Below are positions 3,373 through 54,800 of a stretch of DNA of 64,000 bases, piece by piece. Origin of the DNA: Mesotaenium endlicherianum (Eukaryota); the NCBI GenBank assembly GCA_009602735.1, contig WELA01003378.1, positions 3,712 to 67,711 of the forward strand, given 5' to 3'. Positions within the stretch are counted from its first letter, which is position 1, and every line of letters begins with the position of its first letter. A program made the position numbers and the translations under genes. Below the pieces are notes generated by a model that was not told the DNA's origin, ran no database searches, and saw only the letters and a program-made list of their open reading frames with translations.

Positions 3373-3377
3373 AAAAA
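3373..3377 (-). terminator. Probable Pol III T-run terminator of the tRNA
   Basis: TTTTT on the minus strand about 38 nt downstream of the tRNA 3' end. Confidence 0.55.
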
Positions 3378-3414
3378 GATGACCTGATGGAACACGGCAA
3401 TATGGTCAAATCAC

Positions 3415-3486
3415 TGCCGCTACTGGGGATCGAACCCAGGGCCTTTCCCTTACGAAGGGAATGCACTACCACTGTGCTATACCGGC
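3415..3486 (-). tRNA. tRNA-Thr(CGT)
   Basis: Reverse complement folds as GCCGGTA-TA-GCAC AGTGGTA GTGC-A-TTCCC TTCGTAA GGGAA-AGGCC-CTGGG TTCGATC CCCAG-TAGCGGC-A (72 nt, anticodon CGT). The acceptor stem has one G-G mismatch. Confidence 0.93.
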
Positions 3487-6680: not shown

Positions 6681-6736
<56 letters not shown>

Positions 6737-7804: not shown

Positions 7805-8619
7805 ATCGGCGCGCTCATCCTCGGACGGCAGTGGAGATGTGCTGTTTGCAAGTTTTTGATAATGAGAAAAACAAGAGCATAAGAGCTTAGTTGATGATCT
7901 GGTGTGCAATATGACTGCATTGCAAGTCCCGAGTGGCAGGGCCTTTTTTTGCTACATAACAATCGTTCAGCTGCAGGGTCTTCCTGCTGATTGCTCTAAA
8001 TGCAAATACCGGGCAGGCAAATCGTGTGTGGGAGAATTGGAATGCTGCCGCATTCACACGCATTGCTTGTCAACAATTGAGCACAGAAGATGGCATCAGC
8101 ACAAACCCTTGATCTTGTGCACAGCCCGTGTACCCTCTTTAGGGACCAACATTTCTCTTGCTCACAGCACAACAGCTTGAAAAATCCACTCGCAAGGGCC
8201 TCCCTCATTTCCTGGGCAGGGACGCCAAGTTTTACAGGGCTGACATGCTCGACGCTGTCCTGAACCCTCATTCATGTAACGCGCCCTCACTTCAATAAAA
8301 TTACCTGCTTACGACCCTGCACTACTTGGCTTTCTAGGTTCATAGGGCGATTGTCGACACTATCAGAGCTGGCTTCCGGAGTCCAGTCCGTCACAAGGCT
8401 CCCCCCAGTACTCGATCTCCACTCCTCTCTCTTCGACTGAGTTGAACGTAGTGTGAACAGAGCAGTGGCTGCTTCCCACCGACGAGAAGTAGAAGCTGCG
8501 GTGCAAAAGATCAAAATAAGACATGACTACTTCGCCTCCATCCAGTCTGAAGACCTACAGACGACGTCGCGCACGCGGGAGAGCAGGCCATGATGGACCC
8601 CCGCCCGTCCGCGAGTGTC

Positions 8620-20174
<11,555 letters not shown>

Positions 20175-24016: not shown

Positions 24017-25329
24017 TTAGCACAAGGTATCCCATCGCACCATATATAGTCCTCGGACCATATATGGTCTAGCTAACCCCCACTTTTCAGCATTGACCTC
24101 CAGGGTGCTGCAGTTGACCAAGTGGTACAATCTATGGCTCAAACAAACCGTGCAGACCTTAGGCAAAAAAATACAAATAGGTCTTCTGATCATCAACGAC
24201 AAAATTGTGGTCAAAAGAGTGAGGTTCAAAATTCAGGTTCATAACGAAATTTCATGTGGAAAGTCTGTCATACCCGAGATTACTAAAAAGCTCTTAGAGC
24301 CATGGCTTCTACAAATGCGCCACAAATTGTTGTGGGTGGTAAATGAAATAAATCGACTTACCAAATAGGCGATTAACAATAAATAAAGATCTTTATATCA
24401 GCAAGTAATTTTTATGGTATTTTCTGTTAATCAATTAAACAACAAAGGACAACACACTAGCAGTGGACAATACTCGCAAGTCAACTAGCATCAATAATGC
24501 AATCAGTAAACTCACACATAAGCAAGGCTAGGAGACAGTGCGTATCAATGGCTTCTCGCCTTGGATTCAAACATCTCTCAGTTTGCAGTACATGAAAGTT
24601 GGCCTCGTTTCCGAATGCCGAACTCGAGAGCAATGTCTAGCCTATGTACATGGAATGAGTTTACTGTTCAACGGCCAGTGCGATGGCACCGCCTACCCGA
24701 GAGTTAACCACGTTGGTAGGAATTCGGTCAACCAAATCCACCGCCGTCTCCCATCATCCCGAATCGCCATCCATCCCAAGGATGTCATCTGGCCATTCAT
24801 CTACCAAACCACACTTAGATGCATATTTAGGCAGTTCGCTGCTATCGAGTACGGAAATCAGCTGGCTATCAAAGAATGTGTCAGCAAGCTAACCTAAGTT
24901 GACTTCAGCCGGCTACTCTCAGCTGAGTCATTAAACTGATAAGTATATAAAGTCCTGCAAATTGAATGTTGACTGAAGTTTAGCAGGCTGAACTTAATTA
25001 ACTATTATATGTAAATGAATATTATATCTACCAATATACTGATTCATTACAGATTGAGACAAGCCTTATTTTATGAAGTCCAGCAGACTCAATATTAACT
25101 AAAGTTCAGCAGGCTGAACTTATTTAACTATTTTATTCAAATTATTATTATATCTACGAATATATTGATTCATTACAATCCCTCCAACTTAACATGTTGT
25201 CGCCTCAACAACACTAACACTGGGTACATGGTTCCTTTAGTTGAAAGTGCTGATCTGACTCCCAACACCTTTTGCTTCAACACTGATTCCGGTGGGGATC
25301 ACTAGTAACAGCGTGCTGTCCCTTCCGCC

Positions 25330-26994
25330 CTCAGCCTACTGCCATTAGAAGGGAGATGTCCCTGGGGCCCTATGATGAGGGCAGCCAGACCTCCTCCTGT
25401 CTTAGGGTGACCTGAAGCCTGGGGGATCCGCGTAGGGGCCCCGCGAAGAACGCAGTAACTGGGCTGTTTCCTCCTGCACAGTCTGAAACTGAATGGAGGC
25501 AGCCTTCTCCTGGGCAGCCCTCAAATTGACAGGTACATATACCAGCATCCCAGAAGAATGTTGCATGACATGAGCCAAGGGTACATGCCCTCTCTGCGAG
25601 GGAGATGCAGGCAGGCCTCTGGCTATTTCTCTAGCAGCCCTCCTGTCTGCCCTGTCAGACTAGGTCTCCGTGCTGCAGATGGGCTCTGTCCTCTGGCAAT
25701 TCCAAGCCAAGTGATATCTTCTTCTTCAGCGAGCTGATGGAAGGCCAACCCAGTCTTCTCCCTTACAGGGGATGTGGCAGGTGTCAGGATCACAGCGGGG
25801 CTAGTGTCCTCCTCCTTGCCTTCCTCTTCTTCTTCCTCTGACTCCTCCTCCTCTCCTTCCCCTGGTTCCTCTGAGACTGCTGGGGTCTCTTCTGTCAGCT
25901 GCTCCAGCTCTTCCCGAGAAAAAGAATATCCCACTTCCCCTTTTGGGTGCTGGTGGGGGCTGTTGAGTCCGGACCGCATACAGGTCCTTTTCTCCCTGCT
26001 TGCTTGCCCATTTGGCATAAGCGTGCTTCCCGTTATAGAAAGACTCTTGGGCCCTGCACCTGTCCTCCTGCATTTCTTGGCTCATGCAATCTCTTACTCC
26101 ATCCAATCTTGGGTCCCAAGCTGCAATATGAGGAGGCAACACTACGTTTCCTTGTAGGTCTGTTAGGAAGTCTTCCTCCCTTGCCTTGTCATTTTGCTGG
26201 TCCCTCATGTTGATGGTCATCCACCGCCAATCGGTGGGCTTCTGGAAGAAGGCAGGGTCTGTCCTTTTCAGAGTACAAGGGTACCAGTGCTTTGCAAAGT
26301 CCAGCTGACTGGTTTTCCGCGCCAAAACTTCCCAGCTCCTTCTCTCCACCTTATTATACATGGCCTTGAACCTGTTATGGGATGTAGAGTCCTTAAAACT
26401 GTCCGCGTCCATAGGGATCATCCTGATGACCCTATCCTTCCCCCAGATACCCGTAATCGATACAGCTCCTGCTTCGTTCACCTGGGCCATTACCTTGGCC
26501 TCTCTGACCGTATATCCTACCATCCTGGCATAATCGTGATAGAGGAGGAGTCTAGTGCTGACCTCTACATACTTGTCGAAGTTTTCAAATGTCTCCCCTT
26601 CCCTCTGCAGGATGTCCTGGTATGCCTCACTGCGACTTCTTTGGGCATACTTGAAGGCCTCTTCCAGTAGATCAAAGCCCTTGCCCAGCACTGTGTAGCG
26701 AAAACTACTGATTCTCTTCTGTTCTTCTTCTGCCTGCTGCCTCCGCCTCTCCTCAGCTTGCCTCTCCTCTTCTGCCTTCTTGGCCTCCTCTGCAGCTTTT
26801 TTGTCCAGTTCTTCCTGCCTCAGCCTTTCTTGTTCCTCCTCCTCCTTCTTCTTTTGTGCCTCCCGTTGTTGTTGGAGTTGTTGTGATTCCCGAGCGGAGA
26901 TGGAGGATGATTCGATGTCGCCACGGAATTGCAAGTATTCTGCATGTGCCTCTTCCGCTCTTCTCTTCCTCTTAAGTTCCGACTTCTGAGTCAT
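25330..26994 (-). pseudogene. ORF3 variant 2 of family A (unknown protein, frameshifted in its C-terminal third; 3' limit approximate)
   Basis: ATG 26994 directly after acceptor CAG|G. Shares YRYTV/FRYTV, DYA.MVGYT, YN.VERRSWE.LAR, HW.PC.L, PTDWRWMT, PPHIA.WDPRL.G and, in a shifted frame near 25620-25520, ARGLPASPSQRGHVPLAHV with ORF 49229-50905. Confidence 0.88.
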
Positions 26995-27351
26995 CCTGCT
27001 CAATCATAAACACAATGCAGTCAGTGAAGTCATGATACTTTGCCGCTACTGAGTGCCCGTGGTGAAGAAGAACGTGATAGGGAGAGTCCCTAGTGTGTAG
27101 TACCTTGTATGAGTGAGTATAAGAGAGAATTGAGTTCGAGAGAAAAAGTGAGTATGAGCGCAGGTTGAGTGTGTAGAATGGTTATAAAATTCGCCTGGCT
27201 GATCCCAAAACGGAACACACTCCCTCCAACTTAATTGTAAGGTGGGTTGCCCTTCACAACTATCACTATTTGTCACTAACTGTCACATTCCCCTCCGACT
27301 TATATGGAGACAGGACCTCCTGTCACCTGTCCATGTCCACTGAAATGACAA

Positions 27352-37145: not shown

Positions 37146-37889
37146 ACTGTCATTGCAGTTGACGGGGACAGATGACAGGAAGTCCTGTCTCCATTTAAGA
37201 TGGATGGGCAGGTGACAGAAAGTGACAGTTTAGTGACGATTGTGACCAACAGTCCGTCAAGCCATTAAGATGGAGGGATTGTGACATCTTTTTGATAGTC
37301 AGGAAGCTGCCCTTACAAATATAAACTCACATTCAACCGCACTGTAACTCACTCATCACAGTGTTACATTCTTGGAAATACCTCTGTGTCAGGCTTATCA
37401 CTCCCACTCACTCCTCTCGCAAGGTAAATTAGGACAGGTTGTAACTACGTTCTTGCCCATTATGCCTCTACGGGTGTCCCATTATGCCTCTTCGGGTGTC
37501 CTGTACTCTACTCCTATACTAACTGAGCTATTGCATGTGTGAGCAGGATGACCAAACGGAAGAACGAACTTAACAGTAGATGGCTCGGTGCACCCTATAG
37601 GGTGCATATGACATATTTGGGTGCATGTATAGACCCCTCTAGTACAGGCCGCCATTTACTGTGTAGTTATCCATTTTCACTAAAATTAAGCTTAAACGAT
37701 TGCAAATGTCGCCGAGTAGCCGAGAATAAATTGGCGACCAAATCCGACGAGTTTTCACAAAGTTACAAGTGAAAACGTACACCCTCTGAATCGGTCTGAG
37801 CAAAAAATGAAACAGCGAATCTGCTAACTTTTGCGAGAAAGAAGAAGGAGAGCCTCTTCTTCTTCAAAACCTTTCTTACTCAATCCGCC

Positions 37890-40800
37890 ATGGCTGCAGG
37901 TGAAACTTCGTCTAGTGTCTTCGTAGGTCTCTTCATCTACGTTAGCACAATTTTTTTTGGTCGTAGATGCCAGCAGTTTGCGGACGTTTGTGAGGAGTTC
38001 TTGTTAAAGGAGGAGGTCGTGAAGACATCCGTGGCTAAGAATGGTGGTGTGCAGTACTCAGTGAGGTTCTTGTATGATGGGAAGAAGGTATTGTTTACTG
38101 CTGACTTCGTAGAGTCTCATTTGAGGCCTTTTGATGTTTTTGAGGAATCTAAACATGCGGGTGTGTTCAAACAAATCCGCGAAGTAGAGCCTGACAGCCA
38201 GCCCATAGCAACACTTAGAGAGGAGTCTATAGTGCCTAACACTTTACAGGTTGGTCCTGCTGAGAGTTCTTTGAATGATAGTGGAGAGCCCTCTTCTCAA
38301 ACCGAGAAGAGGAAAAAAGGAAGGCTGGCCAAAAGTAACAGTATAGCAGCACCTGCAGAGAGAAGCAAGTTCAGATCAGCACAGATTGCATCAGACAGGA
38401 GCGATAAAGGAAAGTGCAAGATCTTGGACTCTGACAGTGAAGTTGCCAGTGACAGTGAAGCCTACAGCAGCTCGGATTCCGAGGAGGAGGAGGAGCACAA
38501 CCTGCCCTTGAGTATGCATGAAGACCTGGAGGAAGATGGGAGCCCGGAGGAGTGGAACTGGAAGGCACCTGTCCCTGGTGAGAGCTACAATGACATGTTG
38601 CTCAAGCCCACAAGAGACCATCATCATGGTCTGCAGGGCATTTCTAATGAGAGTTTTAGAGGTCTATCTCCATTTAGTGTTCTTTGTTTTCTCATGCCTA
38701 CATGGTTCTTTAAACAGTTAGCAAAAGAGACAAATGCTTATGCTGCTTTGCACCAGACTAATGGTGGGATACCTTGCACTTCTACTAAGATTGTCATCTT
38801 CCATGGCTTGTGCATGGTTATGGGCTTGCATGTCCTTTCTAGTCTCAAGTGTTATTGGAAGTGCTTATTGAGAGGGCACATTACACTTCCTAGCTTCGGC
38901 CGGTTCATGTCTAGAAACAGGTTCAAAGAAATTAGAAGGTATTTTCATGTGAAGGATAATCAGAATAAAAAGTGTTTTTCTTCTAACTCTAGAGAGTACA
39001 AGCTATGGCAGGTGAAGCCTTTCACAGACCTTGTCTTAAGTACATTCAGGAAGTATTATTGTCCAAGAGAGACTTTGACTATTGATGAGAGATGAAAGGG
39101 GCAGAGTGCCCTTGTGGAAGCGTAGTGACTCACGAGGAAAAGAACTAGTTGCAATCATACTAAAGAGTGCAGCGGCATCTCACAAAGAAAGCTTAGGAAA
39201 ATTACTCAACATTTTGAGTAGCAAGAAACTGCTCACAAATGAACTAGGATAAAAGGCCTCGTCATTACAAACTCGTAGAAGTTTACAGAAGTGAAAACTG
39301 ATGAAGAATGAAGTAGTTATGTCTATTTATAGTTTTTACGATGGCCGCTCGCCCCTCGGCGGGAGGGCCGCTTAGCAACGGATTTTCTTAAGTGTTTGTC
39401 AAATCGTCCCTTCCAAAATATTCGTGAGAAAGCTAGAGCAGCCTCATCTGACGTGTTGGGCTGGTTTGACGTTCACATGCATGCATCGAAATATCTAGAA
39501 TATACTAACTTAGACGCGCTAGGCTAATCCGAAACTTCTAAGTAATCGACCTAGTCGGCACTCCGCGTCAGCCGAACTTACGTGAAGGTTCGAATTCACT
39601 ACAACGGCCCAGATCGTTCGGCGCTGTCGATCAATCCAACGGTCGTGCTCACCGCAAATTAAGGACAGCTGTCAACCGACCTCAAAACTAATTAAACTTT
39701 GAAAATCCATACCTCTCTCAATACCAAATTCGATGAACTTTATATCAAAATGACCAAAACAATACACTCTACACTTCTATGCAATCAAAACATACTTTTA
39801 AAGAACTCAAAAATGCACTTTGTAAACCTATGACCTTACAAGAGAACCATTTTTATTAGGAATAGGCAGTGTTCAATTAGAATATACAATCCGAGCAAAC
39901 CTTACAAGTACGGTATTGAAGTCTTTACTGTATGAGATGCTATCACATATTTTTGTTATGCAATTCATCATATATGACATAGTGAAGAGAGATGGCTTGA
40001 AGAGTGATGTGATTCTAGACCTTGTAGCAATGCTCCCTGTTGGTAGATTGTTCACTCTTGTTGTGGATAGAGGATTCACCTCTCCTAAATTGTTTTAGCA
40101 ATTAGCTAGACTTGGTCATGGTGCTACAGGTACAGTATTTACTAATAGAAAGAACTACCCGGCTAATGATGTGTAGATGAAGCCTAACAGTCATCCTAAG
40201 GGTCATTGAAAGGTTGTCATAAATGAGAATCCTCCTATGATAGCATGCACGTGGCAGGACAAGAAACTTTGTGCTTTTTTTTCTACAGCTACAGGATTAG
40301 TCCCTACCACACAGGCTAGGCGTAATGGTAAAGATAAGCTTGTCATCCCTGCTCCTCAATTGGTAGAGCATTATAATTTGTACAAGGATGCTGTAGACCA
40401 GTATGATGGTTTGTGTCTAAAGAGGAACTATAGTGCGGAGAGGGTATTGGTCAATAGAAAGTGGTGGCATCGAGCATATTGGGGTATTTGGGATGGCTTG
40501 CTAGCAAATGTTTTCATCATGCTAAAGATGGACAATGATGCAGCTGATAAGTATGAGACGTATTTAGACATCATGGACGAGATGTGTTCATTTCAGCGTC
40601 CTAATGAGGCTGGCCCATCTAGAGCCGTAACACGAATTACTACTGCTCTACCTTCTCATGAAGGAAGATTTACCCATAGGCACTTTCCTTCTAGGATTCC
40701 TGATGAAAAGTATGAGTATTGTAAGGTGCGTGCTGCTGGTCTTCACGGCCAACGTAGCTCAGGGAAGAGGCCGATGAAGACGAAGTACAAGTGTTTCCAC

Positions 40801-41004
40801 TGTGACGTTTCCCTTTGTGCAGCACTTTGCTTTCATGTGTACCACACTAATAGAGCTATAGAGCACCTAGATTTAGGACCTAGGAAGAAGCTAGGCAAAA
40901 TTAGGGATTTTGACAATTTTGTAAGACTCGCGTATATTTTCCTATTGTTCATGTCTGGTGCTATATGCAGTATGAAGTATATGCCATGTGTACGTAAGTG
41001 TTAA
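37890..41004 (+). pseudogene. piggyBac-family DDD transposase, interrupted by a solo LTR and in-frame stops
   Basis: MSRNRFKEIRRYFH, LTIDER|TIF..YNPSKPYKYG, VVDRGFTS, WQDKK, YNLYKDAVDQYD, KWWHR and C-terminal CFHCDVSLCAALCFHVYH. Confidence 0.92.
39093..39840. mobile_element. Solo LTR of an unrelated family, 748 bp, TSD AGAGA
   Basis: TG...CA ends, AGAGA at 39088-39092 and 39841-39845. Excision restores the transposase frame (IDER|TIFIRNR). Confidence 0.92.
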
Positions 41005-41876
41005 CGGGTGCCTGCATTGACAGTTGAATTTAAAATTTTCATTACCATGGATTATAAGCATTATTTCATGTGTCATTTGGGAAATAAAGAATTTTTGGAC
41101 ATCATTAATTTATTTTTTCAATTAAAAATAAAAAAGAACACACCAGTGGGAAGACAAGACTGTACTTGTGTTGTGTATAAAACATCTTGACAAAAAACAT
41201 GATGAAATGCTCACAAAGAATGTATATGTACTTGACACTATTTGAGATCAAAATGCACCCGAGAAAAAGAGGCGCTCCTATGTGGGTGCATGTCCTTGGA
41301 TAGTTGTATCTTTGTCAATACTTCTCATATTAGTCCAAGATTTAAGGTACTCACTCATCATATGATAGGGCAGCCCTGGTCTAAATCCCAGGCCCTCAAG
41401 TATTGGCAATTACGAGATACAATGTCTCAAAGTTGGAGAAATATCGCGCGCTTATTCCAACATTATTAAATGCCATTTAAGTCATTACTAAAATTATATA
41501 TTAAATATAGAAGGTACGAAACCAGAAACCTTATGATGTGTACTTCTCGAAAAACTGATTCATGGCCCCATTGGACTTGTATTGTGAGCTATAGAAATTC
41601 CCAACCATGTGCTCAAAACGCACCCAAAAGTGTCAGTTCCACTGAGCCATCTAGTGTTAAGAGGAAGAGGAAGGCCAACCAGGCCCGGCAACAGTATCAA
41701 GAAGTCCAGGAGGACATTGAAGCCACTTCACTTTTAGGACGGGAGGTAGAACGGCAACAATTCAAGAAGGAGGCCAAGAAGAAAAGGGAAGATGAAGAAA
41801 GGGCCAGGAAAGAGGAGGGGGACGGGAAAGCTGAGGAGGCCAGACTCAAAAAAGCTAAGGAGGACGGGAAGGCTGA

Positions 41877-42565
41877 TATGATGAATCAGCATATTACTAG
41901 ATATAATATTCATTTAAATATAGTATTTAGTTCAGTCTGGTGAATCTTAGTAAATATTTTGGTTTGTTGGACTCTAAGTTAAATTCAGTATAATGACTCA
42001 GTCGAGGGCAGCAAGCTAAAGTCACCTTAGGTCAGCTTGCTGACACATTCTTTGACAGCCAGCTAATTTCCGTACTCGGTATCAGTTAATTTCCTAGATA
42101 TGCATCTATGTGTGATATCCTAGATGAATGGCCAGAGGACACCCTTGGATGGATGGCGATTCGGGATGATGAGAGATGGTTGTGGATGTGGTTAGCCAAA
42201 GTCCTACCGACGTGGTTAACTCCCAAGTAGGCGGTGCCATTGCACTCGCCGTCGAACAGGTTAGGTCATGCTCTCAAGTTCGGCATTTGAAAATAAGGCC
42301 AACTCTCTTGTACCGCTTACTGAGAGATATCTGAATCCAAGGCGAGAAGCCATTGATGCGAACTGTCCTCTGGCTGTGCTTATGTTAAGTTTGCTGATTG
42401 CATGATTGATGCTGATTTAGTTGCATTTGACTTCTAAGTACTGAAATGCTAGTTGTGGAGTCTTTGCTGATTACTAAATAACTAGATTAGAACTTAAATA
42501 TTACTTGCTGATATGAAGATCCTTTATTAATTGTTAAGCGCCTATCGGTAAGTCGATTCCTTTCA
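41877..42565 (+). mobile_element. Diverged solo LTR, family A (TSD GCTGA/ACTGA)
   Basis: TATGATGAATC...GATTCCTTTCA, homologous throughout to family A LTRs. Flanks match at 4 of 5 positions. Confidence 0.88.
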
Positions 42566-43639
42566 ACTGAGAAGGAGAGGCTGAGTAAGGCAGAAGAGGA
42601 AGCGAAAGTTCCAACTGGAGAGCTATCGCTATACAGTCCTGGGCAAGAGATTTGACCTTCTGCAGGAGGCACTGAAGTTTGCCCAGGAAAGCAGGGCAGC
42701 ATATCAGAGGGCAACCCTGCAAAGAGAAGGAGAGGGAGCTACACTCTGAGATCGGTATGGTCCAAAACGGCAAAAAACGCCCCAGACGTCGATCTCCGCC
42801 CATCTCCGCCCAAGGCGTAAACCTATTTGTCTCCACCTGTGTGCCTGAAAGTGGAGAGGTTTTCAACACTTTTCTCCACCCGTGTGCCTGAAGGTGTAGC
42901 AGATTTTAGCAATAAACGTGTAATGAATCAGTATATTAGTAGATATAATATTCATTTAGATATAATAGTTAATTAAGATCAGCCTGCTGAACTTTAATTA
43001 ATAGTCAGTCTGCTGGACTTTATATAATTATCAGTTTAATGACTCAGTCGGAAGCAGCAGGCTAAAGTCAACTTAAGTCAGCTTGCTGACACATTCTTTG
43101 ACAGCCAGCTGACTTCCGTACTCGGTAGCAGCGAACTGCCTCGATATGCATCTAAGTGTGGTATGCTAGATGGATGGCCAAATGACATCCCTATGATGGA
43201 TGGCGATTCGGGATCATGGGAGATGGCGGTGGATTTGGTTAACCGAGGTCCTACCAACGTGGTTAACTCCCGGGTAGGCGGTGCCATCGCACTGGCCGTT
43301 GAACAGTAAACTCATTCCATGTACATATGCTAGGCAATGCTCTCGAGTTCGGCATTCGGAAACGAGGCCAACTCTCTTGTACAGCTTACTGAGAGAGATC
43401 TGAATCCAAGGCGAGAAGCCATTGATACGCACTGTCTTCTAACCTTGCTTATGTATGAGTTTACTGATTTGCATTCTTGATGCTAGTTTACTCTCATTTG
43501 GCTGACGAGTATTATTCACTGCTAGTGCGTTGTCCTTTTGCCGTTAAACACTTAACGGAAAGTACCATAAAGATTACTTGCTGATATAAAGATCTTTATT
43601 AATTGTAAATCGCCTATTTAGTAAGTCGATTCATTTCAG

Positions 43640-43651
43640 TGGTATCGGAGC
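43640..43651 (+). promoter_or_regulatory. Primer-binding site for tRNA-iMet
   Basis: TGGTATCGGAGC one base after the LTR CA; canonical is TGGTATCAGAGC, so one G-U pair. Also at 53286 and 59127. Confidence 0.9.
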
Positions 43652-43672: not shown

Positions 43673-45151
43673 ATGGTAAGGACAAGGTCTCAAACTAGCA
43701 ACTCCCGAGACATGGAGAACCAGGATAACGAGAATGTCGAAAACCAGGCGGAAAGCCATGTAGCGGGAAACCGTACCTATTCGGAAGCAGTAGCGGATAC
43801 TGCAGCTAGGGAGGCTGCAGATGAGGCAGCTGCTATTGCCTCAGTCGCAGCTCAGCAAGCTGAGGAGGAGATAGCCAGACTAGAAGCTGAACAAGTAGCA
43901 AAGGCCGCTGAAGATATACAAAGGAGGGAAGGACAGCCAGCTGACGAGCGCACTGTTGAAGAACTTATGGCATCAAGGGCCAATGTTCTGAACCCACCTC
44001 CTGCCGTACAACTCAATGTACCCCTAGGTCAAATACGTGACCGGCTGAATGCGGCAGGAATTGCTGCTGCAGGAGCAAGAGGGATTGTTGAGGACACTAC
44101 TCAGCGAGTAGATGCCAATGCTGCTGCTGCATTTGCTAATCTACCACCCCAAAATGTAGACTTGGGAGCATTGTTCGTTCAGATGCAGTCGCAAATGGCG
44201 ACCATGTATCAGTCCCAGCAGGAGGACAAAAGAATCATAATGTCCCTACTCCGGGACAGAGACCAACTGGGGTCTCACACCACTAGTGGTGGTGGCCGAG
44301 GGCCTAGTAAGCCCAAGCCGAAACCTCCCCAGGACTATGATCCTGAGGGAAACAGAAAATATTACCTGATCAAGTTTCTCGCGGATGTTGAGCAGTGGCT
44401 GGAGAACTACCCAGAACTGCAAGATTACGAGAAGGTCAGGCACACCGGTGCGCTACTGAAAGGCAGTGCCGCAGACTGGTGGCTTTACTGGAAGGAAGAG
44501 CGTAAGGCTCGGCAACTCGGTGACCCTACGTGGGTAGAGTTTGTCGAGAAGTTGCATGAGAAGTTTGATGTCATCAACCAGCAGGAGAAAGCTATCTATG
44601 CGATGATCTCCCTGACACTGAAGCAGACCACTTCAGTTGCTGAGTTTGCTCAAAAGTTCCAAGAGAACATGATGAAGCAGCCTGATTTGCCAGAACGGTA
44701 TAGGATAGCATACTTCAGGTATGGCTTGAAATCCGAGGTCTCTGGTCATTTTGCTGAGAAAAAGTATGAGAAACTGGCTGACTTGATCCAGGATGCTGAC
44801 GCCTGGGATCAGCAGCAGTTCAATCACAAGCGCCAGAGTAACGCTTTGGTGTCTAAGATTGTCAAAAAGCCCCACGGTTCCTACAATGCAGTTGAAGGAG
44901 ACCAGGCTGAGGATAATCAGGGTGATGAATATGAGTATGAGTACAATGCTATTCAGTCTAGAGGTAGAGGTGGTCCCTCTCGAGGTGGCTATGGAAGGGG
45001 TGGTGGTAGGACTAAGCCGAGACCAGCCTCAGCAAAATCTACTTGCTACCATTGTCAGCAGAAAGGCCACTACAGAGAACAGTGTCCGGTCAAGCACCTG
45101 CCTAAGGTCGAGAGAAAAGACCAGCCTTTAAAAGACAGCAACAGTCAGTAA
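43673..45151 (+). CDS. gag: Gag (492 aa) with CCHC zinc knuckle
   Basis: [41 protein letters not shown] tract, [14 protein letters not shown]. Confidence 0.95.
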   Translation: MVRTRSQTSNSRDMENQDNENVENQAESHVAGNRTYSEAVADTAAREAADEAAAIASVAAQQAEEEIARLEAEQVAKAAEDIQRREGQPADERTVEELMASRANVLNPPPAVQLNVPLGQIRDRLNAAGIAAAGARGIVEDTTQRVDANAAAAFANLPPQNVDLGALFVQMQSQMATMYQSQQEDKRIIMSLLRDRDQLGSHTTSGGGRGPSKPKPKPPQDYDPEGNRKYYLIKFLADVEQWLENYPELQDYEKVRHTGALLKGSAADWWLYWKEERKARQLGDPTWVEFVEKLHEKFDVINQQEKAIYAMISLTLKQTTSVAEFAQKFQENMMKQPDLPERYRIAYFRYGLKSEVSGHFAEKKYEKLADLIQDADAWDQQQFNHKRQSNALVSKIVKKPHGSYNAVEGDQAEDNQGDEYEYEYNAIQSRGRGGPSRGGYGRGGGRTKPRPASAKSTCYHCQQKGHYREQCPVKHLPKVERKDQPLKDSNSQ

Positions 45152-48100
45152 TCCAGTCTACTGACTGTGAGGATGCTAGAGATAGTGAGTCGTCACTAGC
45201 TGCCCTCGTAGCAGGTATTATGGGTCCTGCTGAACTGGATTCACTATGCATGCCTGACAACCAGATAAAGGAGACCATCAGCAATATAGACGTCCAGAGA
45301 GTGCACACTCTGGATGCCCTTGTTCAACCTGATGTCCAACATTTATTTGCTACGTCATTAGAACAATGCGAAAGTCAGGAAAAGACAGTCCCCCCTATCC
45401 TACTGCATTGCATGATTGCAGGTAGGAAGGTGAGAGCATTTGTTGACGGAGGGGCGTCACATACTTTTATCCACAAGGACTTAGTTAAGCGGCTAAGGCT
45501 GCCTACTGTCACCCAAGGGAATAGAAAAATATTCCTTGGAGATGCCTCAAGTATCCCGGGAGGAGTTATAACCAAGCCTATTGAGGTCCAGTTAGGTTCT
45601 GGCATTGCAGTTCTAACTGAAACGCTTACATTTGAGGTACTCAACACTGGTTTCTATGATCTCGTGCTAGGCACGTCTTGGCTTATTAGACATCAAGCTG
45701 AAGTGTGTTGGAGCAGACGTACAGTTAAAGTGAGAGGAGCCAATGATGGGCAGACTGACTTGGCACCCACCAGTGCTCTTCCTCTTGTCCTGTGTGGATG
45801 GCACATGAAGGAAAAGAAGAGGCTTCCAGAAGGATGCAAGTTGCTGAATGCAATGGAGTTCGTCAAAAGCTGGAACCAGAANNNNNNNNNNNNNNNNNNN
45901 NNNNNNNNNNNNNNNNNNNNNNNNNNNNNNNNNNNNNNNNNNNNNNNNNNNNNNNNNNNNNNNNNNNNNNNNNNNNNNNNNNNNNNNNNNNNNNNNNNNN
46001 NNNNNNNNNNNNNNNNNNNNNNNNNNNNNNNNNNNNNNNNNNNNNNNNNNNNNNNNNNNNNNNNNNNNNNNNNNNNNNNNNNNNNNNNNNNNNNNNNNNN
46101 NNNNNNNNNNNNNNNNNNNNNNNNNNNNNNNNNNNNNNNNNNNNNNNNNNNNNNNNNNNNNNNNNNNNNNNNNNNNNNNNNNNNNNNNNNNNCAAAATGG
46201 NNNNNNNNNNNNNNNNNNNNNNNNNATCCTATTTGTTAAGAAAAAGGATGGCAGTATGCGGATGTGTGTGGATTACAGAGCCCTGAACAGAATTACAGTA
46301 AAGAACAAGTATGCTTTACCCAGAATCGAGGACTTGCTTGATACCTTGTTTGGCGCTAAAGTGTTCAGTAAGATAGATCTCAAGAGTGGTTATCATTAAA
46401 TCAGAATTGCTGAGGGGGATGAACACAAGACTGCTTTCCGCACACGTTATGGACACTATGAGTTCAACGTGATGCCATTTGGACTGACTAATGCTCCTGC
46501 TACCTTTATGGGTGCTATGAATGACATTTTCAGACCTTATTTGGATAAGTTTGTGCAAGTTTTCCTGGATGATATTTTAATTTTCTCTAAAGATGAAGCT
46601 CAGCACACTGAACACTTAAAGAAAGTGCTGGACACTCTGCGGAAAAATCACTTGTATGCTAAAATGAGCAAGTGTGATTTCTTTAAGGAAAGTATTGAAT
46701 TCTTAGGCCACGTTGTCAGTAAAGAGGGCATCAGTGTGGATCCTAAGAAAGTCCAGACCATAAGGGACTGGCCAGTACCACAGTCTGTCTCTGAAGTTAG
46801 ATCCTTCCTCGGGTTGGCTAACTACTATAGGAGATTTATTGAGAATTATTCCACAAAGGCCAGTAAACTGACTGACCTTACTAAGAAAGACATCGGGTAT
46901 GTGTGGGGGGAAGAGCAGCAGGCTGCCTTCCAGACCCTTAAAGATGCCCTTTGTTCTGCCCCAGTGCTAGCCGTGTATGACCCCAGCAAACCGGTGCAGG
47001 TGGTTACTGATGCCTCTGATTTTGCCATGGGTGCTATTTTGTTGCAGCCTGCTGACAAAACCACAAAGGATGGTAAGGTACGGCAGGAGTGGCATCCTGT
47101 GTTGTATGAGTCTATGAAATTTAATCCAGCGGAGATTAATTACTCAGTGCATGATAAAGAGCTGCTAGCTATCATTCATGTACTCAAACAGTGGAGAGCA
47201 TACTTACATGGTAAAGCTTTTAAGGTGATTACAGATCATCTAGCTCTGACCCACTTTCAGAAGAAGTCCAAGCTGTCGAGGAGGGAGAACCGCTGGAGCC
47301 AGATGCTGGAGCAGTTCCAAGTCCAGATCGACTACAAACCAGGGAAGTTGAATCCTGCTGATGCACTCTCTAGAAGACCTGACTTGCAAGAAAGGAACTT
47401 TAGTCAGCATACTGTAGATAAAGTCCTGTGTGCACTCACTTCACTAAAGGTGAAAAAGTCCTTCCTTGAACAACTTAGGAAAGCCTACCTTTCTGACCCA
47501 ACATTTGAGCCCAGCCCCACTACTGGTATGTGTCGTGCTACCGCACTCGGGTATAAGCTCAAGGGAGGGGTCTGGGTGACTGAAACCACTTCAGGCAGGC
47601 TGAAGCTGGTCATTCCTAATAATTTGGAAATAAGGTCTCTCTTACTGAGTCAAGCTCATGACAGTCTCCTGGGTGGACATTTGGGGCAGGCCAAAACTGT
47701 TGGCAAACTGGCAAAACATTATCATTGGGAGGGGTTACCCCGGGAGGTCTTGAAATATGTCAAGTCCTGTGACCAGTGTCAGAGAAATAAGTCTCGGCAC
47801 ACACCACCCGGAGGTCTCTTGCAACCGCTACCCATCCCAGCGGGACGCTGGGAAACTATATCCATGGACTGGGTGGTCTCACTACCAAGAACTGCCAACG
47901 GGCATGATTCAATACTGGTAGTCGTGGATAAACTGACAAAAATGGTCATTTTTATCCCCACAACTGTCAAAGTGACTGCACTCGAAACAGCGAGACAGTT
48001 TTACAACCATGTAGTATGCCAACATGGGCTCCCTTCTAATATCATCTCAGACAGAGACTCAAAATTCACCTCTAAGTTCTGGAGAGCTTTAATGGGGTTA

Positions 48101-48961
48101 ATGGGAGTCAAACAGCTGCTCAGCACAGCAAACCACCCTCAGACTGATGGGCAGACTGAAAGAACTAACCGAGTTCTGCAGGAGGTGCTGAGAGCATATA
48201 TTAACCAAAAACAAGATAATTGGGATGACCTGTTGCCTCAAATTCAGTTTGCGGTCAACAGTGCGGTGCACGCGTCAACGGGCAAAACTCCTTTTGAACT
48301 CAGCCTGGGTAGAGTCCCTAAGTCTCCTCTAGATGTGCTAGGGGAATCTTTAACTCACCCTGAAGGGATTGACAACCCGGTCTCCCTCCAGTTAACTCAG
48401 GAGTTTGCTGACACCCTGTCAGAAGTCCAACGAAACTTGCACACGGCCCAAGAAAACCAACAAAAATACGCTAATCAACACCGTCGGGAACTGACATTTT
48501 CCAAGGGGGATTTAGTCAAACTGCATTCTCAGCACCTGTACCTCCCTGGTGTGGTCAAGAAAAAGCTTGGCCCTGTCTGGGTCGGTCCATATTCGGTGGT
48601 CCGTCGTGTCGGTCAGAATGCTTACAAACTGAACATGTCAGCTGAATACAAGGGGCACCCGGTCTTTAATGTCTCCTTCCTGGAACCGTACATCAAAGGT
48701 GATACACTGTTCACAGGTCGGTTCCCTGTCCAACCGGGACCGGTCCCCGCTGTCCGGGACGGCGACCCTGAGGAATATGAGGTCGATGAGATTTTAGACG
48801 CTCGCTCGGTCCGTCGATCGTCTAAATATGTCATGAAATACCTCATTCGATGGAAGGGTTACGATGCCTCTGGGGACACTTGGGAGTTTAAGGACCACTT
48901 GACCAATGCCAAAGGGGCGTTGACACGGTTCCACCTTCGGGCCGCTGGAGTCCCTCCATAA
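45127..48961 (+). pseudogene. pol: Pol in -1 frame to gag (PR-RT-RH-INT-chromodomain); one premature stop at 46397-46399 and an N gap
   Basis: All Ty3/gypsy motifs in order. TAA replaces the CAA seen in the 61.86-kb copy. C-terminal chromodomain [25 protein letters not shown]. Confidence 0.93.
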
Positions 48962-49228
48962 CTGTCATTTCAGTTGACACGGGAAGGTGACAGGCGGTCC
49001 TGTCTCCATTTAAGTTGGAGGGGAAAATATATGACAGTTAGTGAGCGAGAGCGATAAAAACACACTCATACGTTTATGTGTAGCGCATCGCAACTACGTC
49101 AACTTTTAGCAATCATCCTGTAAGGTAAACAGCAGCGAAGCCACTATACTAAATACTAACATACTTCCTGCAATCCCTATGACAAAGGTCCATATCCTAC
49201 TAACTTGTGCCCTGGTTACATGTGCAGG

Positions 49229-50905
49229 ATGGCGCCCACCACACAAAAGGAGGACAGAAAGCGCAAGGCAGAAGAAGCCAGGAGGACAATGGAGCAATAC
49301 CAGAAGGAGCTGGCGGCGACGTCCCTCACCAGGAGAGAACAAGAAAGGGTCCGCAAACAACAAGAGGCGGCAGAAGAGGCACAGAGGAAGAAGGATCAGG
49401 AAGCGGAAAACCTCAGGAAGGCTGAGGAGGAGAGACAGAAGAAACAGCAAGAAGAAGCGGCAGCGGCAGAAGAGGAGAAAAGAAAAAAGATTGAAGCGGA
49501 CAGACAGAAGAGCTTGGCCACTTACAGGTATACTGTGGTGGGTGGCCAAAACTTCGATAACCTGAAGGAAGCATTGCTGGCAGCCCAGGAGATCAACAGG
49601 CTGGAACAGACAACACTGCTACAGAAGGAAGGAGCTACAGCACTGGACAGGTACATCGAGACACACACCGGCGTGGTCCTTTACGAAGATTATGCTAAGA
49701 TGGTGGGCTATACAGCAGAGCAGGCCCGGTATCTCGCAGATGATTCAGAGGACAAGCCGGTCCCCATACCGGGAATAGTGGGAGATCAGAGACTCATCCG
49801 GATGGTGAGCATGCGGCCCGATAGCTTTAAGGATACGGTATTCTACCTCACACTCCTGCCAGCTTACAATGAAGTTGAGAGAAGGAGCTGGGAGTACTTG
49901 GCCAGGGAAGCAGGACAGCAGATGTTCTCTCCCCACTGGTTCCCGTGTAAACTGAGGAAGGCTGAGCACGGACCCCAGTACTACCAGCAGCCAACAGACT
50001 GGAGGTGGATGACCGTCACAAATAAGAAGCAGGAGTGTGACCGAGCCCAACCGGATGACTTCCACTATGGCCTAGACGGCTATCTCATCCTACCACCTCA
50101 CATTGCCCCTTGGGACCCCAGGCTGAATGGATGCCTGAGCAATATGAATGCAGAGACCAAGGAACATAGGAGGAGGGGAAGAGACTACTTCTCTAAGGGA
50201 AAGCATGCCTTTGTCAAATGGGCAAAGAATGCAGGCCGGATAGATATCAGTAGGCTGAAGGCCAAGCAACCTCCAGCGCGCCCTAAGAAAGGGAGGTCGG
50301 TAGACTACTCCATGTCTACTAGGGAGCAGGACGACTTAGTGGACGAGACCCCTACTCTCTCCGAGGAGGAGGATGAGGAGGATGAGGAAGAAGAACAAGG
50401 CAGAGGAGAAGCATCAGCAGCAGGTACTCAGGATACCCAGGGAGAGGCAGTGGCACTTCCTAAAGAACCACGATCAGGTGTGTGGAATGTGATCCCCGTT
50501 ATGGCGACAACTGGACCCCGCGCTCGCTCCCCCAGCCCACCTGCCCAAGCAGGGGAAGAAGCTGATCTGACGGTACTGGGCAGCAGACACAGACAGAAAT
50601 CCCCAGAGGACAGGGGTGCCAGAAGAGGGACACGCGGGTGGGCCAGAGGTATGCCAGCCTCCCCCTCCGCTCAGGGGCATGTACCTCTAGCCAATGTATT
50701 TCAGCATCCTACTGGAATGCCTGTCTATGTGGGAATCAACACCCAAATAGTTGAAGAGCAGGCCACCATCCTCCGTTCTCCCCGAGGGCCAACTTTAGAG
50801 CAAACAGGGTTCTTTAGAAGGCAAGCTGACAGACCTAGAGGGCTGTCCAGATCTAGGTCCAGATCTCCGTCTCCTGATCCTGAAGCACCAGGAACAACCC
50901 CTTAA
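49229..50905 (+). CDS. ORF3 variant 1: intact 558-aa protein of unknown function in the 3' region of the retrotransposon
   Basis: Open frame with ATG right after the acceptor of predicted intron 49125-49227. Basic motif plus E/K/R/Q coiled-coil, Trp-rich core, acidic tract and RS/SP tail; homologous to two other variants in the window. Confidence 0.88.
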   Translation: MAPTTQKEDRKRKAEEARRTMEQYQKELAATSLTRREQERVRKQQEAAEEAQRKKDQEAENLRKAEEERQKKQQEEAAAAEEEKRKKIEADRQKSLATYRYTVVGGQNFDNLKEALLAAQEINRLEQTTLLQKEGATALDRYIETHTGVVLYEDYAKMVGYTAEQARYLADDSEDKPVPIPGIVGDQRLIRMVSMRPDSFKDTVFYLTLLPAYNEVERRSWEYLAREAGQQMFSPHWFPCKLRKAEHGPQYYQQPTDWRWMTVTNKKQECDRAQPDDFHYGLDGYLILPPHIAPWDPRLNGCLSNMNAETKEHRRRGRDYFSKGKHAFVKWAKNAGRIDISRLKAKQPPARPKKGRSVDYSMSTREQDDLVDETPTLSEEEDEEDEEEEQGRGEASAAGTQDTQGEAVALPKEPRSGVWNVIPVMATTGPRARSPSPPAQAGEEADLTVLGSRHRQKSPEDRGARRGTRGWARGMPASPSAQGHVPLANVFQHPTGMPVYVGINTQIVEEQATILRSPRGPTLEQTGFFRRQADRPRGLSRSRSRSPSPDPEAPGTTP

Positions 50906-51003
50906 GGTGACACGCTGAAGAGGCAGTCAGTAAGGGAGGCTGGTCAGGATCAGTTTCTTTATTTAAAGCTTTTGCAGTTTAATGTTGTCGAGGCGACAAC
51001 AAG

Positions 51004-51018
51004 TTAAGTTGGAGGGAT
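51004..51018 (+). promoter_or_regulatory. Polypurine tract
   Basis: TTAAGTTGGAGGGAT directly before the 3' LTR TG; same at 52421-52435 and 25192-25178 (-). Confidence 0.85.
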
Positions 51019-51830
51019 TGTAATGAATCAGTATATTAGTAGATATAATATTCATTTAAATATAATAGTTAATTAAGTTCAGCCTGCTGACCTTTAGTTA
51101 TTAGTCAGTTTGCTAGACTCTAGTTAATAGTCAGTTTGCTGAACTTTACTTAATAGTCAGTCTGCTGGACTTTACATAATTATCAGTTTGCTGACTCAGT
51201 GGAAAGCAGCAGGCTGAAAGTCCATATAAGTCAGCTTGCTGACACATTCTTTGACAGCCAGCTGACTTCCGTACTCGGTAGCAGCNNNNNNNNNNNNNNN
51301 NNNNNNNNNNNNNNNNNNNNNNNNNNNNNNNNNNNNNNNNNNNNNNNNNNNNNNNNNNNNNNNNNNNNNNNNNNNNNNNNNNNNNNNNNNNNNNNNNNNN
51401 NNNNNNNNNNNNNNNNNNNNNNNNNNNNNNNNNNNNNNNNNNNNNNNNNNNNNNNNNNNNNNNNNNNNNNNNNNNNNNNNNNNNNNNNNNNNNNNNNNNN
51501 NNNNNNNNNNNNNNNNNNNNNNNNNNNNNNNNNNNNNNNNNNNNNNNNNNNNNNNNNNNNNNNNNNNNNNNNNNNNNNNNNNNNNNNNNNNNNNNNNNNN
51601 NNNNNNNNNNNNNNNNNNNNNACGCACTGTCTTCTAACCTTGCTTATGTATGAGTTTACTGATTTGCATTATTGATGCTAGTTTACTCTCATTTGACTGA
51701 CGAGTAGTATTCCCTCCTATTGTATTGTCCTTTGCCGTTTAACGAGTTAACGGAAATACCATAAAGATTACTTGCTGATATAAAGATCTTTATTAATTGT
51801 TAATCCTATTTGGTAAGTCGATTCATTTCA

Positions 51831-54800
51831 GATACCCAGGGACAGGCAGTGGCACTTCCTAAAGAACCACGATCAGGTGTGTGGAATGTGATCCCCGTTA
51901 TGGCGATAACTGGACCCCGCGCTCGCTCCCCCAGCCCACCTGCCCAAGCAGGGGAAGAAGCTGATCTGACGGTACTGGGCAGCAGACACAGACAGAAATC
52001 CCCAGAGGACAGGGGTGCCAGAAGAGGGACACGCGGGTGGGCCAGAGGTATGCCAGCCTCCCCCTCCGCTCAGGGGCATGTACCTCTAGCCAATGTATTT
52101 CAGCATCCTACTGGAATGCCTGTCTATGTGGGAATCAACACCCAAGTGGTTGAAGAGCAGGCCACCATCCTCCGTTCTCCTCGAGGGCCAACTTTAGAGC
52201 AAACAGGGCTCTTTAGAAGGCCAGCTGACAGACCTAGAGGGCTGTCCAGATCTAGGTCCAGCTCTCCGTCTCCTGACCCTGAAGCCCCAGGAACAACCCC
52301 TTAAGGTGACACGCTGAAGAGGCAGTCAGTAAGGGAGGCTGGTCAGGTTCAGTTCNAGGTCAAGTTCAGCTACCTTATTTAAAAATTTCTGCAGTTTAAT
52401 GTTGTCGAGGCGACAACAAGTTAAGTTGGAGGGATTGGAATGAATCAGTATATTAGTGGATATAATATTCATTTCAATATAATAGTTAATTAAGTTCAGC
52501 CTGCTGAACTTTAGTTAATAGTCAGTCTGCTGGACTTTACATAATTATCAGTTTAATGACTCAGTCGAAAGCAGCAGGCTGAAAGTCCATATAAGTCAGC
52601 TTGCTGACACATTCTTTGACAGCAAGCTGACTTCCGTACTCGGTAGCAGCGAACTGCCTTGATATGCATCTAAGTGCGATATGCTAGATGAATAGCCAGA
52701 TGACATCCCTATGATGGATGGCTATTCGGGATGATGGGAGATGGCGGTGGATTTGGTTAACCGAGGTCCTACCAACGTGGTTAACTCCCGGGTAGGCGGT
52801 GCCATCGCACTGACCGTTGAACAGTAAACTCATTCCATGTACATATGCTAGGCATTGCTCTCGAGTTCGGCATTCGGAAACGAGGCCAACTCTCTTGTAC
52901 AGCTTATTGAGAGAGATCTGAATCCAAGGCGAGAAGCCATTGATACGCACTGTCTTCTAACCTTGCTTATGTATGAGTTTACTGATTTGCATTCTTGATG
53001 CTAGTTTACTCTCATTTGGCTGACGAGTAGTATTCCCTGCTAGTGCGTTGTCCTTTTGCCGTTAAATAGTTAACGGAAAGTACCACAAAGATTACTTGCT
53101 GATATAAAGATCTTTATTAATTGTTAATCGCCTATTTAGTAAGTCGATTCATTTCATTTATTCACTGCTAGTGTGTTGTCCTTTGCCGTTTAACAAGTTA
53201 ACGGAAAATACCATAAAGATTACTTGCTGATATAAAGATCGGTATTAATTGTTAATTGCCTATTTGGTAAGTCGATTTATTTCAGTGGTATCGGAGCCTT
53301 TATCACAGTCTTCTTTGTATTGTAAGGACAAGGTCTCAAACTAGCAACTCCCGAGACATGAAGAACCAGCATAACGAGAATGTCAAAAACCAGGCAGAAA
53401 GCCTTGTAGCGGGAACCCGTACCTATTCGGAAGCAGTGGCAGATACGACAGCTAGAGAGGCTGCAGATGAGGCAGCTGCTATTGCCGCAGTCGCAGCACA
53501 GCAAGCTGAGGAGGAGAGAGCCAGACTAGAAGCTGAACAATTAGCAAAGGCCGCTGATAATACAAAAAGGAGGGAGGGACAGCCAGCTGACGAGCGCACT
53601 GTTGAAGAACTTATGGCATCAAGGGCCAATGTTCTGAACCCACCTCCTGCTGTACAACTCAATGTACCCCTAGGTCAAATACGTGACCGGCTGAATGCGG
53701 CAGGAATTGCTGCTGTAGGAGCGAGAGGGACTGTTGTGGACACTACTCAGCGAGTAGATGCCAATGCTGCTGCTGCATTTGCTAATCTACCACCCCAGAG
53801 TGTAGACTTGGGAGCATTGTTCGTTCAAATGCAGTCGCAAATGGCGACCATGTATCAGTCCCAACAGGAGAACAAAAGAATCATAATGTCTCTACTGCGG
53901 GACAGAGACCAACAGGGGTCTCAAACCACTAGTGGTGGTGGCCGACGGCCTAGCAAGCCCAAGCTGAAACCTCCCCAGGGATATGATCTTGAGGGAAACA
54001 AAAAATATTACCTGATCAAGTTTCTCGCGGATGTTGAGCACTGGCTGGAGAACTACCCAGAACTGGAAGATTATGAGAAGGTCAGGCACACCGGTGCGCT
54101 ACTGAAAGGCAGTGCCACAGACTGGTGGCTTTACTGGAAAGGAGAGCGTAAGGCTCGGCAACTCGGTGACCCTACGTGGGGAGAGTTTGTCCAGAAGTTG
54201 CATGAGAAGTTTGATGTCATCAACCAGCAGGAGAAAGCTATCTATGCGATGATCTCCCTGACACTGAAGCAGACCACTTCAGTTGCTGAGTTTGCTCAAA
54301 AGTTCCAAGAGAACATGATGAAGCAGCCAGATTTGCCAGAACGGTATAGGATAGCATACTTCAGGTATGGCTTGAAATCCGAGGTCTCTGGTCATTTTGC
54401 TGAGAAAAAGTATGAGAAACTGGCTGACTTGATCCAGGATGCTGACGCCTGGGATCAGCAGCAGTTCAATCACAAGCGCCAGAGTAATGCTTTGGTGTCT
54501 AAGATTGTCAAAAAGCCCCACGGTTCCTACAATGCAGTTGAAGGAGACCAGGCTGAGGATAATCAGGGCGATGAATATGAGTATGAGTACAATGCTATTC
54601 AGTCTAGAGGTAGAGGTGGGTCCTCTCGAGGCGGCTATGGAAGAGGTGGTGGTAGGACTAAGCCGAGACCAGCCTCAGCAAAATCAATTTGCTTTCACTG
54701 CCAGCAGCCAGGTCACTTCAGAGAGCAATGTCCAGTCAAGCACCTTCCTAAGGTCGAGAAAAAAGACCAGCCTTTAAAAGACAACAACAGTCGGTAATCC

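Follow-up and report, generated by a model that had tools for sequence, protein, structure and literature searches.

Conserved splice signals suggest a 5' untranslated intron ahead of an accessory gene in chromovirus-type retrotransposons of Mesotaenium endlicherianum

We analysed a 64,000-nucleotide stretch of the genome of Mesotaenium endlicherianum (assembly GCA_009602735.1, contig WELA01003378.1, positions 3,712 to 67,711 of the forward strand; hereafter the window) in which retrotransposons carry an additional open reading frame (ORF), ORF3, behind pol. Bases 1-20000 are host DNA with 59-68% G+C in 2-kb bins (one bin is lower owing to an N gap), and from about 21.5 kb to the window end lies a nest of elements with 40-51% G+C. 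These elements are Ty3/gypsy retrotransposons with long terminal repeats (LTRs), of the chromovirus type. Their gag holds a Ty3-capsid-like domain (Pfam PF19259, E = 4.3e-10; PF03732, E = 2.6e-08) and a CCHC knuckle scoring slightly below the Pfam cut-off (zf-CCHC, E = 0.00084, 19.8 bits against 20.8). The Pfam domain order of pol is RVT_1, RT_RNaseH, Integrase_H2C2, rve, SH3_Tf2-1 and Chromo, the chromodomain forming the integrase C-terminus at residues 793-845 of 853. The nearest pol proteins in a collection of 5.8 billion proteins were chromodomain polyproteins merely 40-48% identical, and the few of them that bear names come from streptophyte algae and plants. The LTRs, about 720 nt long, begin with TG and end with CA (43637-43638 in the 5' LTR of v1). 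One nucleotide further on, at 43640-43651, lies a sequence resembling a primer-binding site, TGGTATCGGAGC, which we take to match initiator tRNA-Met. ORF3 or its remains are found in three variants of the element, v1, v2 and v3 (Table 1), and the splice signals in front of it, which are common to all three, point to a short spliceosomal intron that a single base separates from the ORF3 start codon.

Table 1 Features of the retrotransposon nest and of the region in front of ORF3. Positions are those of the window; a slash within a motif marks a predicted exon-intron boundary. PPT, polypurine tract; RT, reverse transcriptase.
Feature	Position	Strand	Details
v1 element	5' LTR 42919-43638; gag 43673-45151; pol to 48961; ORF3 end 50905; 3' LTR from 51020	+	N gap in pol; TG at both LTR starts
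v1 leader donor candidates	43621-43626; 43676-43681	+	GTAAGT (U5 end); GTAAGG (just past gag ATG 43673)
v1 pol	46400..48961	+	RT, RNase H, integrase, SH3, chromodomain (Pfam, ORF); stop TAA 48959-48961
v1 conserved post-pol spacer	48962..49025	+	Internal PPT copy; inverted repeat GACAGG (48989-48994)/CCTGTC (48999-49004)
v1 predicted non-coding exon 1 of ORF3	49079..49124	+	ATG-free stretch behind ATG 49076, ends AAG; 5' end inferred
v1 candidate intron	49125..49227	+	103 nt; donor AAG/GTAAAC, acceptor GCAG, 2 ATGs inside
v1 branch sites	49198-49204; 49154-49160 (second copy)	+	TACTAAC
v1 acceptor and start	CAG 49225-49227; G 49228; ATG 49229	+	
v1 ORF3	49229..50905	+	558 codons from the conserved ATG
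v2 element	LTR 33248-32529 to LTR about 25177-24344	-	gag-pol broken, ORF3 open for 397 codons
v2 candidate intron	26996..27103	-	108 nt; donor GTACTA at 27103, branch site CACTGAC 27026-27020, 2 ATGs inside
v2 acceptor and start	GCAG 26999-26996; CAG 26998-26996; ORF3 ATG 26994	-	
v2 ORF3	25801..26994	-	397 codons, Arg/Gly-rich tail
v3 element	pol end about 37146	+	ORF3 interrupted
v3 candidate intron	37424..37546	+	123 nt; donor GTAAAT, branch site TACTAAC 37517-37523, acceptor GCAG, 3 ATGs inside
v3 acceptor and start	CAG 37544-37546; ORF3 ATG 37548	+	
piggyBac-like DNA transposon in v3 ORF3	37572..41656	+	About 4.1 kb; 22-nt terminal inverted repeats (91%); DDE_Tnp_1_7 and zinc-finger matches
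v3 ORF3 remnant	41662-41877	+	LTR at about 41878 truncates the remainder
TATA-like words	49053-49059 (v1, +); 37320-37325 (v3, +); 27186-27182 (v2, -)		GATAAAA; TATAAA; TATAA
PPTs before 3' LTRs	51004-51016 (v1, +); 52421-52433; 25180-25192 (v2, -)		TTAAGTTGGAGGG in v1
Internal PPT copies	49010-49022 (v1); 27222-27234 (v2, -); 37195-37207 and 37265-37277 (v3)		Directly past the pol stop; TTAAGTTGGAGGG in v1 and v2

ORF3 is a real gene under purifying selection. The v1 and v2 products are 41% identical over 370 residues (E = 2e-91), with a nonsynonymous difference (pN) of 0.34-0.38 and saturated synonymous sites (pS 0.78). Each consists of an N-terminal basic patch (RKRK or RKRR), a long coiled-coil-like stretch rich in E, K, R and Q, a conserved core of about 260 residues and a variable tail, which is RS-rich (Arg/Ser/Pro) in v1 and RGG-rich in v2; judged by this composition, the product is perhaps a nuclear RNA-binding factor. 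Within the databases searched ORF3 is an orphan. Word-based protein searches with the whole protein and with residues 98-360 returned no relative among proteins of 308-982 amino acids, the only lengths covered, and a HMMER profile of the two cores gave no match at E = 0.001 among 1.84 billion cluster representatives. None of the 212 peptide-pattern matches in metagenome loci was confirmed. The sole Pfam match was sub-threshold and of low complexity, and the best Atlas score (0.84) was at noise level, being reached by shuffled proteins a third of the time. A structure prediction of the core from a two-row alignment was unusable (mean pLDDT 34). In v3 the gene is interrupted at about codon 9 by a piggyBac-like transposon, which sits at a duplicated TTAA and whose own transposase frame is split across several frames. 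The closing 166 codons of a v1-type ORF3 are present once more at 51804-52304, behind the v1 3' LTR (99% identical to 50432-50731). Next come an LTR and another gag, which shows that tandem or recombined arrays of the element occur here.

Directly upstream of ORF3, all three variants have an exon-side AAG/GTA donor, a yACTrAC branch site and a GCAG/G acceptor with the ATG one base on. The distance from the branch-site A to the last intron base is 24, 24 and 25 nt in v1, v3 and v2, respectively. Judged as GT-AG introns (a donor with exon-side AG, CTRAY 15-40 nt from the end, and YAG), three of three variants qualified. The branch sites are strong, and the donors (GTAAAC, GTAAAT and GTACTA) lack a G at position +5 in every case. 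In each variant one of the two or three ATGs inside the intron opens a frame that overlaps the ORF3 start out of frame; in v1 the ATG at 49179 opens an out-of-frame ORF of 128 codons that spans this start. The ATG directly behind the acceptor is the start common to the three ORF3 proteins, because alignment of the v3 remnant begins at residue 9 of v2 and at residue 10 of v1 when counted from that ATG. This corresponds to v1 residue 13 as printed in the ORF list, which begins the v1 frame at an in-frame ATG at 49220, inside the candidate intron. In v2 and v3, in-frame stops occur a few codons upstream of the ORF3 ATG.

These signals lie where the first-pass annotation had placed them in all three variants, and its remark that the DNA upstream of ORF3 barely aligns between variants was borne out. 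Identity between variants is 76-87% over the last 150 nt of pol and the 64-68 nt past its stop (z = 6-14 relative to shuffles), and the post-pol spacer by itself reaches 76-85%. Beyond it, likeness falls close to shuffle level, with z values of 0.6, 1.3 and 4.7 from the spacer to the donor and of 1.7-3.1 over the intron. We then determined how often a donor at 60-200 nt and a branch site at 15-40 nt arise by chance, using 5000 dinucleotide-preserving shuffles of each 260-nt upstream stretch. With strict motifs the pair was found with P = 0.0014, 0.0008 and 0.0002 per variant, and with liberal motifs (AGGTR donor, CTRAY branch site) with P = 0.045, 0.037 and 0.021. Jointly, the three variants give about 2e-10 (strict) to 3e-5 (liberal), products that overstate independence as the cassettes are homologous. 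The donor alone, under strict motifs, gave P = 0.069, 0.029 and 0.020, and this test matters because a local donor is needed by a local intron only. On both strands of the window, the strict set was found at three of 28 YAGGATG sites, exactly the ORF3 sites (four of 28 with the liberal set), and at five of all 4109 YAG sites (141 with the liberal set). In these three cassettes the splice signals were thus retained while their surroundings diverged to saturation, a mark of selection.

The history of this region differs from that of the rest of the element. A polypurine-tract motif, TTAAGWTGGAKGG, occurs seven times in the window against 0.41 expected, both at its regular place before 3' LTRs and as internal copies directly past the pol stop (Table 1). 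The internal copy of v2 and the second one of v3 are followed by TGTG, resembling a PPT/LTR junction; local alignment of the v3 spacer (37195..37277) to LTR copies scored 31, against a shuffle maximum of 26. Between v1 and v2, identity is 95% in gag, 91% in pol (blastn) and 88-90% in the LTRs. Their DNA similarity ends at 49044/27273, just past the internal PPT copy, and none is detectable by blastn from there up to the 3' PPT. Likewise, v3 and an expressed relative part from v1 at 49023, as seen in blastn ends and RNA loose ends, respectively. The cassette comprising the upstream region, the intron and ORF3 therefore lies between two PPT copies, and the variants split much earlier and more deeply in it than in the flanking gag, pol and LTRs. 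It did not simply drift in place, because non-coding LTR DNA is still about 90% identical. The cassette behaves as a swappable module bounded by two PPT copies, and template switching at these conserved borders is presumably how it was exchanged. Given this separate and older history, the three introns can be regarded as deep, nearly independent witnesses.

The post-pol spacer has further features of its own. Its 6-bp inverted repeat with a 4-nt loop is invariant and stands immediately before the internal PPT copy, and a similar small hairpin precedes the 3' PPT at 51 kb. The spacers of the three variants (48962-49040; 37146-37260; 27350-27250 on the minus strand) are rich in TGACAG/CTGTCA words, which might be linked to homeodomain sites. 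TGACAG has 60 matches in the window against 43 expected (one of 100 shuffles reached 60), with a cluster in the post-pol spacer. A pattern built on the conserved spacer had no match in metagenome contigs.

Because donor, branch site and acceptor persist in three cassettes that are otherwise unalignable, we consider it probable that the sequence just ahead of ORF3 is a true spliceosomal intron under selection, with a single base between its end and the start codon. It may well, although we are less sure of this, be removed from a subgenomic ORF3 message that starts at an internal promoter between the internal PPT copy and the donor. That the intron is spliced, where transcription would begin and what ORF3 would do are points that we infer. 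Transcription by RNA polymerase II would begin in the variable, pyrimidine-rich DNA past the post-pol spacer, about 40-100 nt upstream of the donor, and would run on to the poly(A) site in the 3' LTR. Splicing would take out the two or three upstream ATGs held in each intron, so that the first AUG in the message would be that of ORF3, set in AAGGAUG. The full-length RNA that is packaged must keep the intron, so its splicing would be inefficient or blocked; inefficient, regulated splicing would fit the donors that lack a G at +5 despite strong branch sites.

RNA evidence was sought in raw-read runs bearing the same species label, namely six runs (X10, X13, X14, X16, X17 and X18), together with contigs from X1. 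Reads of X10, X13 and X16 were placed on 46230-50950 at 95% likeness and those of X14, X16, X17 and X18 on 48700-49900 at 90%, joints being listed from three reads upwards. At 95% likeness, the intron bin was covered to a depth of 0, 0 and 0.73, and the sole joint listed (48435 to 48725, ends CT..TC, five reads in X13) marked a form with 289 nt deleted; over 48700-49900 at 90% no joint was listed. The most expressed relative lacks these 289 nt (48436-48724) of the integrase/chromodomain region and leaves v1 right past the internal PPT copy. Runs X16-X18 are strand-specific. In these the pol end is 6-25 reads deep, all with the first mate on plus, and reads over 49233-49700 are in the opposite orientation, nearly all with the first mate on minus. 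Since the reads are oppositely oriented, the pol end and the 5' part of ORF3 are not covered by one transcript in these samples. In the ORF3 orientation, depth was 0 in all three bins of 49110-49232 in all three runs and 2.32, 0.76 and 0 in the next bin; X16 also had one partial read around 49061-49104. Stranded libraries mostly have a first mate that is antisense to the RNA. Should that be so here, the ORF3 RNA is sense, discontinuous with pol and absent from the intron, and the unspliced reads described below are antisense; under the other protocol the reverse applies.

Several observations weigh against a spliced message from an internal promoter. The six RNA runs, with a depth of at most 4 at the site and a listing threshold of three reads, gave no listed read that connects 49124 with 49228, and no loose end at 49228 was among those listed. 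In X18, RNA of pol-end orientation runs unspliced from 49028 to 49273 (2-4 reads), so that the unspliced form is seen if this orientation is sense; four of four such reads, from two start places, have the changes 49039 T>C and 49060 A>C. Reads in the ORF3 orientation start at 49233 at the earliest, not at 49228 as would be expected of junction reads, and in X17 their signal begins in part at a foreign junction at 49374 (three reads) and so perhaps stems from a truncated copy carried within a host transcript. As to a promoter, a TATA-like word 50-130 nt before the donor is not above chance (shuffle P = 0.18 in v1, 0.21 in v3 and 0.10 in v2), that of v1 being merely the weak GATAAAA, and the depletion of ATGs in the putative exon 1 does not reach significance (P = 0.17-0.66 for the absence of any ATG). 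A decayed LTR U3 as the source of the promoter was dropped: when the three spacers were compared with seven LTR copies, their U3 likeness was at shuffle level except at the PPT/TGT junction. Finally, the comparison covers three cassettes only, of which one (v3) is dead. Taken together, the RNA data neither show nor exclude the splice.

Of the proposal in the first-pass annotation that ORF3 forms its own expression unit, the splice-signal set, kept in three of three variants beyond chance, stood up, and the TATA-like boxes did not. Its further suggestion of either an internal promoter or a spliced subgenomic RNA fits the signature of a selected intron in the sequence and leaves the choice between the two unsettled. 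Its reasoning that splicing must be suppressed in packaged RNA stands, as a sense intron can persist only if the RNA that is copied stays unspliced.

The most serious alternative is a retrovirus-style message in which a donor in the LTR or leader is joined to the ORF3 acceptor GCAG/G and gag-pol is removed; the local AAG/GTA would then be unused, an alternative donor or part of a small middle exon. We regard this as rather unlikely, yet it is the customary route by which sense 3' genes are expressed in retroviruses, Drosophila gypsy, barley Bagy2 and C. elegans Cer1 (PMC7264820, PMC10309623). Consensus donors are present in four of four aligned leaders, the acceptor and branch site are the best-kept parts of the signal set, and no promoter motif rises above chance, all of which such a message would accommodate. 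It leaves unexplained the AAG/GTA donor kept 103-123 nt upstream in all three cassettes, for which P is 0.02-0.07 each when the strict donor is tested alone. The leader donors themselves carry no signal of selection, the whole leader being 95% identical, and splicing from GTAAGG would leave the gag AUG upstream of that of ORF3, in a frame shifted by one base. The lack of a listed loose end at 49228 speaks against this route also.

It is improbable, in our judgement, that no splicing takes place and that the motifs have been kept for another reason or by descent, ORF3 being either silent or expressed from unspliced RNA (with a start near 49230, or by reinitiation). The RNA reads are in keeping with this, as no junction read was listed, a few reads span the intron unspliced and the oppositely oriented ones start no earlier than 49233; the X1 contig covering 48952-49598 is also colinear with the window. 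The elements are moreover old: the v2 LTRs are 91.5% identical, v2 pol is split into several ORFs and v3 is disrupted. Against it stand the three signals with their fixed branch-acceptor spacing, which persist amid shuffle-level divergence, and the intron ATGs, which would hinder translation from unspliced RNA; the RNA is also too shallow to exclude splicing.

A captured cellular gene, caught with its own promoter and 5' untranslated intron behind the original PPT by read-through or recombination and later passed among lineages, has the PPT copies in its favour (one right past pol, at the site of the sole PPT in ORF3-less elements, and a second before the 3' LTR, with TGTG behind the internal copy in v2 and v3) as well as a cassette history unlike that of gag, pol and LTR, but we find it very doubtful because no cellular or other relative of ORF3 appeared in any protein, HMMER, metagenome or Atlas search and the G+C content of the cassette (46-51%) matches the element, not the host DNA; as an idea about origin it is compatible with the internally started, spliced message and not a true rival to it.

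Outside the ORF3 region we noted the following. The U3 of the LTRs (42960-43030 and 51060-51175) contains tandem units of about 27 nt of the TAATAGTCAG..CTGCTGRACTTTA type, of which the 5' LTR of v1 has two and the 3' LTR has more; a TATATAA or TACATAA word comes after them. The 3' LTR of v2 has a 126-bp tandem duplication at 24946-25177. In the G+C-rich host DNA, a 329-bp unit is present in five tandem copies (98% alike) at 419-2055, and a tRNA-Thr gene (anticodon CGT; 3415-3486, minus strand) is the sole Rfam or ARAGORN match in the window. G runs of 981 and 115 nt at 15156-16136 and 18039-18153 (98% pure), next to a single N, are most likely sequencing or assembly artefacts, not biology.

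An element that is copied through RNA will normally lose an intron if the RNA serving as template has been spliced. Persistence of one in cassettes so deeply diverged would mean that the element controls which of its own RNAs are spliced. If true, a small complete intron before an orphan gene would give a simple chromovirus a second transcription unit; if splicing is absent, ORF3 is an ordinary extra ORF with suggestive motifs. The PPT copies at the cassette edges suggest, in addition, how retrotransposon lineages gain and swap accessory genes. A more far-reaching picture, which we put forward as a long shot, is that of a self-contained accessory cassette with its own promoter, a regulated 5' untranslated intron and an orphan nuclear RNA-binding protein (basic patch, coiled coil, RS or RGG tail), which chromovirus lineages swap by recombination at the conserved PPTs and whose protein would act on element RNA in the manner of Rev or of CERV from Cer1, deciding between splicing into the ORF3 message and unspliced export for packaging. 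In that case the intron would serve the gene behind it as sensor and as target alike.

Retained introns, spliced 3' genes and an accessory gene with its own promoter (in antisense) are each already known in LTR elements. Foamy viruses, which are vertebrate retroviruses, drive their 3' accessory genes from a second promoter inside env. Open-access full-text searches found neither a sense accessory gene of an LTR retrotransposon with its own complete, conserved 5' untranslated intron nor a cassette bounded by duplicated PPTs. Functional introns are kept in the plant Ty3/gypsy element Ogre and the Arabidopsis Ty1/copia element EVADE, where partial splicing yields subgenomic RNAs (PMC12786077). 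These introns lie within gag-pol coding sequence and tune the gag:pol ratio or join pol, whereas the ORF3 intron is non-coding and stands before an extra gene. Penelope-like elements also retain a spliceosomal intron, but they belong to another class of retroelement and the intron lies in the terminal repeat or leader of a single ORF (PMC2377424, PMC4209133). The accessory gene23 of maize Grande lies between pol and the 3' LTR, like ORF3, and it has its own promoter within the element and a nuclear protein product. It is antisense to gag-pol, so that an intron or promoter in it is not exposed to loss through genomic RNA, whereas ORF3 is sense (PMC7264820). The env genes of retroviruses, gypsy and Bagy2 share with ORF3 an acceptor close before the ATG; their messages use a leader donor and no separate short intron, whereas ORF3 has its own candidate local donor (PMC7264820, PMC10309623).

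Cer1, a Ty3/gypsy element of C. elegans, makes its CERV protein from a spliced message while its genomic RNA must leave the nucleus unspliced (PMC10309623). CERV, like ORF3, is an orphan, fast-diverging accessory protein encoded behind pol and has a basic patch of the nuclear-localisation type, and its zipper-like helix has a counterpart in the coiled-coil-like stretch of ORF3; we claim no sequence similarity between the two. In species related to C. elegans, as in the ORF3 cassettes, a consensus acceptor has been retained immediately upstream of the ATG predicted as the start. The cerv message differs in that it has five exons, is made from the LTR and shares its first exons with gag, whereas the ORF3 intron is complete and short, has its own donor and lies wholly between pol and ORF3; splicing has been demonstrated for Cer1 (PMC10309623), and the ORF3 intron is predicted from its sequence signals. 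The problem of selective splicing that such an intron would pose is the same as that solved by Rev-type factors in retroviruses and by CERV in Cer1.

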